From positions 65,262-129,261 of the forward strand of contig CAYTFE010000002.1 of NCBI GenBank assembly GCA_964437115.1: 64,000 bases of DNA, read 5' to 3'. Positions within the stretch are counted from its first letter, which is position 1. Every line of letters starts with the position of its first letter. Source of the DNA: an uncultured Fibrobacteraceae bacterium. GTDB lineage: Bacteria; Krumholzibacteriota; Krumholzibacteriia; LZORAL124-64-63. The notes beneath the pieces were generated by a model. The model searched no databases and was not told the DNA's origin. It saw only the letters and a list, made by a program, of their open reading frames with translations. A program made the translations under genes and the position numbers. Of the stretch, positions 40,299-41,046 are shown piece by piece.

Positions 40299-40332
40299 GG
40301 GCATCCTCCAGTTCAAAAGTCTACACACATAA

Positions 40333-40349
40333 TTGCATCTATTGTGCCA
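40333..40349 (-). promoter_or_regulatory. Sigma-54 (RpoN) -24/-12 promoter element P1, immediately upstream of the Fn3-lipoprotein operon.
   Basis: The minus strand reads TGGCAC-aatag-ATGCA, with GG and GC at the exact consensus spacing (TGGCAC-N5-TTGCW). The predicted TSS is about 20 nt upstream of the ATG at 40298 and is followed by the GGAGGA RBS. An AT-rich, possibly bent region lies upstream. Confidence 0.6.
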
Positions 40350-40470
40350 CCTGCATTCTTGACATCTAAATTTAAGCATGAATTTAAAATATTATGCTAT
40401 CTACTTGGCTTTATTAAAGTTACACATACAAGGGAGGAATGTATTTACAAAGCAAAAACTTATTATGCAG

Positions 40471-40524
40471 TTGATTGGAAATTAATAATGTCTACAACTA
40501 AATTTAATCGTCCTCTTGATTGGA
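40471..40524. promoter_or_regulatory. Two direct repeats TTGATTGGA, a candidate enhancer/UAS for a bEBP.
   Basis: Copies at 40471-40479 and 40516-40524, 45 nt apart. They lie about 135 and 180 nt upstream of the P1 -12 element, which is the typical enhancer distance. Confidence 0.35.
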
Positions 40525-40540
40525 CACTTTTATACAAAAC

Positions 40541-40605
40541 AAAGAGCTGACAACCCAAGGGTTACGGTTGATGTCTCGCCAAACATCAATACCAGTCAGC
40601 TCTTT
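40541..40605 (-). terminator. Nested palindrome followed by a U-tract: a terminator-like or attenuator-like RNA structure in the intergenic region.
   Basis: A perfect 11 bp inverted repeat (AAAGAGCTGAC ... GTCAGCTCTTT) encloses 43 nt. That loop contains a 7 bp hairpin (TTGATGT-ctcgccaa-ACATCAA) and CAACC/GGTTG pairing. On the minus strand the element is followed by UUUGUUUUGUAU. Confidence 0.4.
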
Positions 40606-40822
40606 AGATAAATTTTTCAACGATTCTGGGGGTAAGATTTGTAAGCCTTTACCCGTGTCGACTCAAGTACAACCAGACCCCACATCTGAATAGCTCTTCA
40701 GTCAAAACTGACTTGGGAAAAGTGCTTCATCTTCGCCGGTTGATGTTTAAATAAACCTCAACCCCAAAATTCGTTATTTGCAGTCTCAGTTGTTCCCTAC
40801 AACCCACTACATATCAACTACA

Positions 40823-40838
40823 CTGCAGGTAATGTGCC
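40823..40838 (-). promoter_or_regulatory. Second sigma-54 -24/-12 promoter element P2, about 490 nt upstream of P1 in the same orientation.
   Basis: The minus strand reads TGGCAC-attac-CTGCA, with perfect GG/GC spacing and only the -14 position off consensus. No ORF of useful size lies between it and the structured element at 40541-40605. Confidence 0.55.
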
Positions 40839-41046
40839 AATTAACGGCATATTAGCCATTAGCTTAACGTCCTTGATAGCAACAAGTTAACCGGCGTATA
40901 GATATTGTAGAAACCTATTAAATCTATACGATTGTAAATATTATTTATATGTAAAGTGGAGTTCGAGCTATCATGAAGTAACAAATACAGTTACGTCTAT
41001 TAACTTTATTAACAATTATTTTAGGGGATTTGACAAAAATTTACAA

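Follow-up and report, generated by a model that had tools for sequence, protein, structure and literature searches.

The region described here is the 748-nt spacer at positions 40299..41046 of a 64,000-nt stretch of DNA from an uncultured Fibrobacteraceae bacterium (contig CAYTFE010000002.1, positions 65,262 to 129,261), which is hereafter referred to as the window. The spacer separates a gene coding for a sigma-54 bacterial enhancer-binding protein (bEBP) with a TPR sensor domain from a four-gene operon related to the cell surface and the type IX secretion system (T9SS), and it contains two sigma-54-type −24/−12 elements, designated P2 (next to the bEBP gene) and P1 (next to the operon). The two elements probably serve two separate sigma-54-dependent units, with P2 directing a structured non-coding RNA of about 280 nt and P1 directing the operon, and do not form one operon with two promoters. 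In the original prediction they were described as tandem promoters of the operon; the two promoters themselves are upheld by the present analysis, and the assignment of P2 as a second operon promoter is not, as P2 appears to head its own conserved, terminator-ended RNA.

Both elements are located on the minus strand, which is also the strand of the flanking genes. P2 (TGGCAC-ATTAC-CTGCA, TGGCACATTACCTGCA) occupies 40839-40824, one base away from the coordinates given for it earlier, with the motif letters unchanged, and P1 (TGGCAC-AATAG-ATGCA, TGGCACAATAGATGCA) occupies 40349-40334. On re-reading of the sequence the two near-consensus elements were found as predicted, with the canonical spacing of GG and GC and with 10 of the 11 scored positions matching the consensus TGGCAC-N5-TTGCW in each of them. 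Transcription from P2, the position of which is conserved in relatives, is predicted to start at about 40813. For P1 the C of the GC element at 40335 places the predicted start near 40323, leaving a 25-nt leader before the ATG of the lipoprotein gene at 40298, and the GGAGGA sequence said to precede this start codon is indeed present at 40309-40304. The spacer was also correctly described as AT-rich, its GC content being 35.3% compared to 42.1% for the whole window, and a scan of it for sigma-70-type promoters gave two weak matches against 6.5 expected. On the two strands of the 64 kb taken together, the string TGGCAC-N6-TGCA occurs only twice, at P1 and P2, against 0.17 expected, and only two of 100 shuffled sequences contained two or more such matches. 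If one mismatch to TGGCAC-N5-TTGCW is allowed, there are three matches in the window against 3.4 expected, so that the sequence match alone is not decisive and conservation has to decide. The third sigma-54-like match (TGGCAGCGGAGTTGCT) lies at 33728-33743 on the minus strand, inside the PorV-family gene, and is probably due to chance.

Conservation was evaluated in 171 related loci (numbered with the prefix L), of which 169 were used for promoter statistics and 159 had enough upstream sequence. The matches listed in the metagenome scan were distant relatives with no more than 41% identity, and the close relatives were fetched singly; the nearest labelled ones are metagenome-assembled genomes (MAGs) named as Krumholzibacteriia and “Fibrobacteraceae”. 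The contig of the window comes from marine water-column metagenomes, identical contigs being present in ENA ERZ23498983 and JGI 3300009008. A proximal motif, defined as GG-N10-GC scoring at least 9 of 11 within −130 to +10 of the lipoprotein start, is present in 70 of the 159 homologous loci, 42 of which score at least 10, where about 1.6 would be expected from the background of 0.072 motifs per kb per strand in the same loci. The survey for P1 covered MAGs labelled as Krumholzibacteria, Zixibacteria, Ignavibacteria, WOR-3, Eisenbacteria and Hydrothermota. Position 7 of the motif did not enter the score; it is occupied by a purine in 60 of the 70 proximal and 17 of the 18 distal instances, as in the canonical TGGCACG/R. 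Given the count of proximal motifs and this purine bias, P1 can be regarded, at the level of sequence, as a sigma-54 promoter that has been conserved in this gene cluster in several phyla.

The distal motif follows the type of activator gene lying directly upstream. It was found in 19 of the 20 loci with a TPR-type bEBP gene in this position and a spacer of 613-1144 nt, the twentieth locus having a weaker distal CGGCAC..CTGCG, and in one of the 13 loci with a response-regulator bEBP, where the spacer measures about 150-200 nt. Loci with no activator directly upstream carry it in eight of 60 cases, which makes nine of 73 for all loci lacking the TPR bEBP. Both motifs are also present in the two loci fetched last (L174 and L175), which stand outside these counts. 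The predicted co-localization of activator, promoter and target is confirmed, as two bEBP genes are adjacent to the spacer and the synteny of activator, promoter and target recurs in all the close relatives. Thus, both elements are conserved in homologous loci and behave as genuine sigma-54 promoters would, and their use by sigma-54 and by these particular activators is likely.

Downstream of P2, sequence blocks conserved in the window and its close relatives start about 25 nt after the element, as established with nhmmer and alignments, and make up a putative structured non-coding RNA at 40533..40813 of the minus strand, the exact ends of which are predicted. No credible ORF was found between P2 and P1, and none is conserved in frame or length across the relatives, so a small-ORF reading of the spacer was rejected. 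The minimum free energy of the RNA sequence from the window has a z-score of −4.3. RNAalifold, applied to 11 sequences, gave 51 pairs in eight helices, 39 of the pairs having compensatory changes. When the pairing partners were slid by one to three columns, the proportion of paired cells dropped from 87.2% to 33-56%, the number of pairs with double changes from 39 to 13-21, and the covariation score from 0.469 to no more than 0.20. Values as high as those of the real alignment were reached in none of 500 shuffles.

A covariance model of the RNA core (R1) scores 67-145 bits on the strand of P2 and no more than 25 bits on the reverse strand, with 67 bits (E = 1.3e-12) for the RNA of the window. 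In a held-out test it detected the RNA at the predicted place in L174 (123 bits) and L175 (139 bits), where the match, corresponding to the core domain of the RNA, has a −24/−12 motif about 90 nt upstream. According to nhmmer and R1 searches over more than 170 loci, this long form of the RNA occurs in the close clade only. No Rfam family matched the window or 23 related loci at the gathering score, and permissive scans (E up to 10) of the spacer and the two RNA regions returned matches at chance level only.

The RNA can be divided into three parts, all on the minus strand. At the 5′ end, helix mapping places the hairpin GUUG-UAGGGAA-CAAC at 40789..40803; its loop is G-rich, and relatives have GCAGGGA or GGGGGGA in this place. 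The multi-helix core domain, delimited by R1 and helix mapping at 40623..40774, contains an invariant ACCGGC loop at 40734-40742 and a hairpin (GAUGUGGGGUC) at 40668-40694 with the invariant loop GGUGGGG. The terminator-like 3′ domain at 40533..40606, supported by the fold, RNAalifold, helix mapping and an 11/11 complementarity, consists of a closing helix AAAGAGCUG/CAGCUCUUU (40606-40540), which is followed by GUUUUGU and within which lies a hairpin at 40568-40589, its loop GGCGAGAC being invariant. The helix together with the U-tract looks like an intrinsic terminator, and the three invariant loops suggest specific recognition.

Just past the terminator, at 40509..40527 (minus strand), there is a short hairpin or palindrome of the type GUCC...GGAC, with the sequence GUGUCCAAUCAAGAGGACG in the window and CGUCCUCUUUUGGGGAC-like sequences in relatives, conserved in L005-L007 and L166-L173, which could be either a second 3′ hairpin or a DNA site acting on P1. 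Two of the nine contigs of close relatives fetched first break in the spacer, their ends lying upstream of the lipoprotein gene by 449 nt in L165 and by 526 nt in L168. In L168 the RNA is replaced by the end of a foreign ORF and a hairpin, with the post-terminator hairpin and P1 kept, possibly because an insertion element is present or because the assembly breaks at a repeat.

Eisenbacteria-type and some other loci have a different RNA after the distal promoter, with the same overall plan. In all 15 loci carrying it, a hairpin GGAGGGGGG(G)ACCUCC starts 13-14 nt after the sigma-54 motif (L011, L024, L040, L042, L077, L082, L098, L103, L111, L112, L117, L129, L136 and L149 belong to this type). 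In seven loci this short form runs for about 145 nt (117 nt in L082) and ends with the GC stem AAAGAGCC…GGGGCUC and five to eight T residues, and it contains a CACCGGCC loop. The RNAs of L024, L111 and L149 are longer and have other blocks in common, and L085 shows an intermediate form, with a GAGGUGGGGUC hairpin inside a AAAGAGCUGACG…CGUCAGCUUUUUUU terminator. The homology suggested for the long form and the short “GGAGGGGGGGACCUCC” form is based solely on modules that they have in common. These are the sigma-54 promoter, a G-loop hairpin at the 5′ end, an ACCGGC loop and a terminator helix of the type AAAGAGCC...GGCUC; within the short form itself only weak covariation is seen (6 of 33 pairs, six sequences).

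In every lineage having the RNA, it follows the stop codon of the TPR-activator gene, and it is absent from 12 of the 13 loci in which a response-regulator activator lies directly upstream of the operon. In L082 the RNA is located directly after the activator gene, and two genes lie between it and the lipoprotein operon; the operon has retained a P1 of its own. The RNA is genetically tied to the gene of the TPR-sensor activator, and this linkage, as seen in L082, together with the strong terminators, is the reason for reading it as a separate gene and not as an operon leader.

The alternative that survives best is that P2 and P1 are tandem promoters which both serve the operon, with the fold being a cis-acting 5′ leader of the attenuator or riboswitch kind that allows conditional read-through. 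It has in its favor that P2 and P1 lie on the same strand with no gene between them, that RNA and operon adjoin in nearly all loci, and that the terminator helix could be conditional, its U-tract being weak in GC-rich relatives. We nevertheless consider this unlikely, since P1 has its own −24/−12 element conserved about 190-300 nt past the terminator, the short related form has strong terminators with a GC stem and T7-8, and no riboswitch or leader family matches; besides, the RNA of L082 stays with the activator gene two genes away from the operon, and loci with only the response-regulator bEBP keep P1 without the RNA.

A further reading would take the conserved block after P2 not for an RNA but for a small protein gene or an element acting at the DNA level, such as an extended enhancer or a nucleoid-protein array for P1. 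The palindromes conserved in the spacer would fit the latter, and the former could refer to the public gene call of an 80-aa ORF over the RNA core in L174 (4493-4735). This ORF is likely a spurious annotation, probably made because the RNA family is missing from annotation. Such a reading is very improbable, as no ORF is kept in frame or length across the relatives, the substitutions in helices are compensatory with many G-U pairs, and the model scores five to six times higher on the strand of P2, which is unlike a DNA site or a coding region. As for P1 and P2 being accidental matches in an AT-rich spacer whose genes use other promoters, which would agree with the number of one-mismatch matches in the window (3 vs 3.4 expected) and with no rpoN having been seen in the window and the fetched loci, this is hardly credible and is effectively refuted by conservation, with the motif position kept in about 70 loci of several phyla, the distal site strictly linked to the TPR activator and two sigma-54 activators encoded next to it.

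The two-unit arrangement can be put together into the following putative circuit. P2 would start the non-coding RNA at about 40813, which would end at about 40533 at the terminator-like helix, and P1 would start, at about 40323, an mRNA coding for the lipoprotein, the DUF4384 protein, the M6-like/FG-GAP protein with a T9SS-like tail and the PorV-family protein. The sigma-54 holoenzyme does not open promoters alone and needs an ATP-driven activator bound upstream, so both units would be switched on by the ATPase activators encoded upstream. A signal received via the TPR domain, or via the orphan response-regulator activator, would thus turn on the operon and the regulatory RNA together. The RNA would then work post-transcriptionally, presumably in trans, its invariant loops serving for base pairing or for the binding of a protein, with the mRNA of the activator itself as one possible target.

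Several places in and around the spacer may bind the activators. An AT-rich repeat just past the bEBP stop codon (40997..41015, minus strand) is a candidate enhancer, or upstream activating sequence, and relatives have the palindrome TATTAA-N5-TTAATA at the same position. An inverted repeat with 16-nt arms is located 56-91 nt upstream of P2 (40895..40930, minus strand), relatives having an inverted repeat of other sequence in the same place; this repeat may be an enhancer or, equally, serve the bEBP gene as its terminator hairpin. A GTAAC-containing motif at 40413..40426 (minus strand), some 70 nt before P1, recurs in relatives and may be an activator or IHF-type site. Motifs of the type GTAACYNNTTG are found in relatives 55-75 nt upstream of both P1 and P2, and GTAAC is present in 33 of 112 upstream regions, where 11.6 would be expected. 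NtrC-like palindromes TGCACA-N5-TGTGCA precede P1 in Zixibacteria-, WOR-3- and Ignavibacteria-type loci, with one or two copies 60-110 nt upstream of P1 in L020, L029, L102, L104, L119, L086, L088, L015, L009 and L060; they are clear in distant loci only and differ from the enhancer candidates of the clade to which the window belongs.

With regard to targets of the RNA, attention is drawn to the translation-initiation region of the TPR-bEBP gene (44125..44159, minus strand). The 35 nt before and across its start codon (GAATTGCCCGCCTTCTCGCCGGGGGACAATGTCGATGG; …GCCCGCCUUCUCGCCGGGGGACAAUGUCGAUGG) are almost invariant in the window, L005, L007, L167 and L170-L173, with the encoded proteins being only moderately similar. 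This region contains (U)CUCGCC, which can pair with the invariant RNA loop GGCGAGA. The pairing has a length of 7 bp in most of the loci, with 6 bp for L006 and L170 and 5 bp for the window, and feedback of the RNA on the TPR-bEBP mRNA via GGCGAGA/UCUCGCC is offered here as a hypothesis only, with the mRNA as a candidate target. Prediction of duplexes between the whole RNA and five start regions gave long non-specific duplexes with unremarkable z-scores and was discarded.

A number of points weigh against the circuit as proposed. In both P1 (ATGCA) and P2 (CTGCA) the −12 element has another base in place of the first T of TTGC, and a search with an RpoN-box regular expression revealed no rpoN in the window or the fetched loci, which amount to about 2 Mb, the presence of this gene in the genome being suggested by the two bEBPs. 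The structure counts come from 11-13 related sequences of one clade, and part of this alignment had also served for deriving the structure. The start sites, the 3′ end and the efficiency of termination are predicted ones. Being branched, the 3′ helix escaped a simple terminator scan, and the U-tract is poor in the most GC-rich relatives, L166 and L169; with incomplete termination, transcription from P2 would reach the operon as well, and the tandem reading would hold in part. The enhancer sites of P1 and P2 are candidates, and the GGCGAGA/UCUCGCC pairing shows no covariation, with a rough chance estimate of 0.2-0.8.

The dependence of small RNAs on sigma-54 and a bEBP is well established, also for sRNAs whose genes lie beside that of their activator, so the RNA described here is not a new principle. 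In Pseudomonas, the crcZ gene lies directly downstream of cbrB. The sRNA CrcZ is sigma-54-dependent and is activated by the NtrC-family protein CbrB (PMC6296734). The likeness extends to a non-coding RNA of several hundred nt with its own sigma-54 promoter, activated by a bEBP and placed after the activator gene, to one activator also driving protein-coding operons, and to the CbrB subsites TGTTAC/GTAACA, GTAAC being enriched upstream of the promoters in our loci. There is, however, no homology in sequence or structure, and CrcZ was among neither the gathering-score nor the permissive Rfam matches. CrcZ sequesters Hfq/Crc with repeated A-rich motifs, whereas the RNA under P2 has single invariant G-rich, ACCGGC and GGCGAGAC loops, and its presumed activator is a TPR-sensor protein of another phylum and not a two-component response regulator.

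In Vibrio, LuxO together with sigma-54 activates the Qrr sRNAs (PMC4878744, PMC11407668). Here, too, the activator gene neighbors the gene of a sigma-54-dependent sRNA, and a feedback loop of the kind suggested by GGCGAGA/UCUCGCC, which in our case is a sequence lead only, is reported to exist. The Qrr sRNAs reportedly feed back on luxO mRNA, as Tu and colleagues are said to have described in 2010. They differ in being about 100 nt long and Hfq-dependent, with qrr1 divergent from luxO, whereas the RNA under P2 measures about 280-340 nt and is co-directional with the activator gene and downstream of it. No homology to CrcZ, Qrr, GlmY/Z or any Rfam model was found at the gathering score in the window and the 23 related loci. 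Judging by its sequence, the RNA under P2 appears to be an undescribed structured RNA gene, with sigma-54/bEBP wiring like that of CrcZ and Qrr and belonging to neither.

The operon has precedents as well. In Flavobacterium psychrophilum, a sigma-54 promoter of the gliding/T9SS-adhesin operon remFG-sprCDBF was validated by reporter mutagenesis (PMC9723704), and sigma-54 has been called the “controller of the bacterial exterior” (PMC3162934). As in the window, that promoter is a −24/−12 element of a member of the Fibrobacterota–Chlorobiota–Bacteroidota (FCB) group lying before genes for a T9SS-secreted surface protein and a PorP-like partner, and the sigma-54 regulon of F. psychrophilum is rich in exported proteins and lipoproteins. 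The genes differ (an SprB adhesin in F. psychrophilum), no associated sRNA has been reported, and the second promoter there is that of another sigma factor and serves the same operon. The claim in the original prediction that sigma-54 control of secreted, T9SS-related proteins is not a standard regulon is therefore weaker than stated, since the control of exported and surface proteins by sigma-54 is already established. The literature search yielded no paper linking RpoN with PorV, and the literature on DUF4384 was uninformative.

A wider proposal, which we put forward tentatively as possible rather than probable, is that the RNA under P2 is the founding member of an undescribed family of regulatory RNAs which depend on sigma-54 and span the phyla of uncultivated FCB-group bacteria, among them Krumholzibacteria-like bacteria and Eisenbacteria. 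The RNA would be hard-wired to the TPR activator, acting in trans through its invariant loops, with feedback on the activator mRNA by GGCGAGA/UCUCGCC pairing beside the ribosome-binding site, and timing a T9SS-linked surface complex. If true, these FCB lineages would have their first defined riboregulatory circuit, sigma-54 regulons and small RNAs being essentially unexplored in uncultivated FCB candidate phyla. The conserved module is compact, comprising two activators, two −24/−12 promoters, a structured RNA with three invariant loops and a four-gene surface/T9SS-related operon, and the strict coupling of the RNA to the TPR activator predicts which regulator serves which target. The RNA family could be used in RNA databases and in metagenome annotation, as at least one gene caller puts a spurious ORF over the RNA.

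The presence of two sigma-54 enhancer-binding protein genes upstream, as originally predicted, was confirmed by domain searches. The TPR-sensor bEBP (41047..44157, minus strand) possesses TPR, Sigma54_activat (8.6e-62) and HTH_8 domains; its ORF measures 1036 aa from a TTG, and gene callers use the ATG at 44127, which gives 1026 aa. It had been described as a TPR-GAF protein, of which the TPR part is correct; the search for GAF gave no match, even with E values up to 1 allowed. The NtrC-type response-regulator bEBP of 453 aa (44613..45974, minus strand) contains Response_reg, Sigma54_activat (6.7e-67) and HTH_8 domains, and its gene is the first of the cluster in close relatives. Both proteins have the sigma-54-interaction AAA+ domain with GSFTGA, a variant of the GAFTGA loop. 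There is no histidine-kinase gene beside the response-regulator gene or among the 37 window ORFs scanned, and the response regulator is apparently an orphan. The gene lying between those of the two bEBPs codes for a small acidic protein of 101 aa with a signal peptide (44191..44496, minus strand), which family searches assigned to no known family; orthologues of 103-114 aa are found in the same place in every close relative, and this secreted protein could be part of the signaling input.

The operon downstream of P1, all on the minus strand, starts with the gene for a 297-aa lipoprotein (39405..40298) with a signal peptide and a lipobox (LLATISGC). Its model, with a predicted local distance difference test score (pLDDT) of 87.7, has two FN3-like beta-sandwich domains, and the structure search gave generic FN3/DUF4466 matches only, the best solved one being 4EI0, a DUF4466 lipoprotein of Parabacteroides. 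The second gene (37719..39380) codes for a DUF4384 protein of 553 aa, identified by domain search, with an N-terminal membrane anchor; its middle part is rich in Tyr, Trp and Pro, and the C-terminal tail of about 200 aa consists almost entirely of Ser, Lys, Arg and Thr. The third product (34273..37518) is an M6-like (immune-inhibitor-A-like)/FG-GAP protein of about 1040-1081 aa matching FG-GAP_3, TIGR03296 and NF052323, the last with 1.3e-59 and 202 bits against a cutoff of 600. In the last 139 aa of this 1081-aa protein there is a match to Por_Secre_tail with E = 0.0033 and 18.1 bits, below the gathering score of 27, and domain searches gave no Por_Secre_tail on the lipoprotein or the DUF4384 protein, so the earlier mention of a set of proteins bearing a T9SS C-terminal domain was overstated and comes down to one protein with a sub-threshold tail.

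The PorV-like gene, on the other hand, was recognized correctly: the fourth product, a PorV/PorQ-family outer-membrane protein of 314 aa (33332..34276), scores 157 bits with NF033709 against a cutoff of 90, and is below the cutoffs of the PorV, PorQ and PorV2 equivalog models (29 vs 325 for PorV2, NF052325). The pairing of cargo and PorV paralogue resembles that of NF052323 (“T9SS-dependent M6-like inactivated metalloprotease”) with NF052325 (“PorV2”), with scores so far below the equivalog cutoffs that the proteins are relatives and not members, and with the lipoprotein and DUF4384 genes being extra. Core T9SS genes (Sov, PorK/L/M/N) were not found among the 37 window ORFs scanned, a set that leaves outside about 10 long ORFs at 2559-20995, and the other scanned ORFs are housekeeping genes. 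One ORF that bears no relation to the finding, at 47592-50804 on the minus strand, codes for a 1070-aa IcmF-like fusion of B12-binding, MeaB GTPase and methylmalonyl-CoA-mutase domains.

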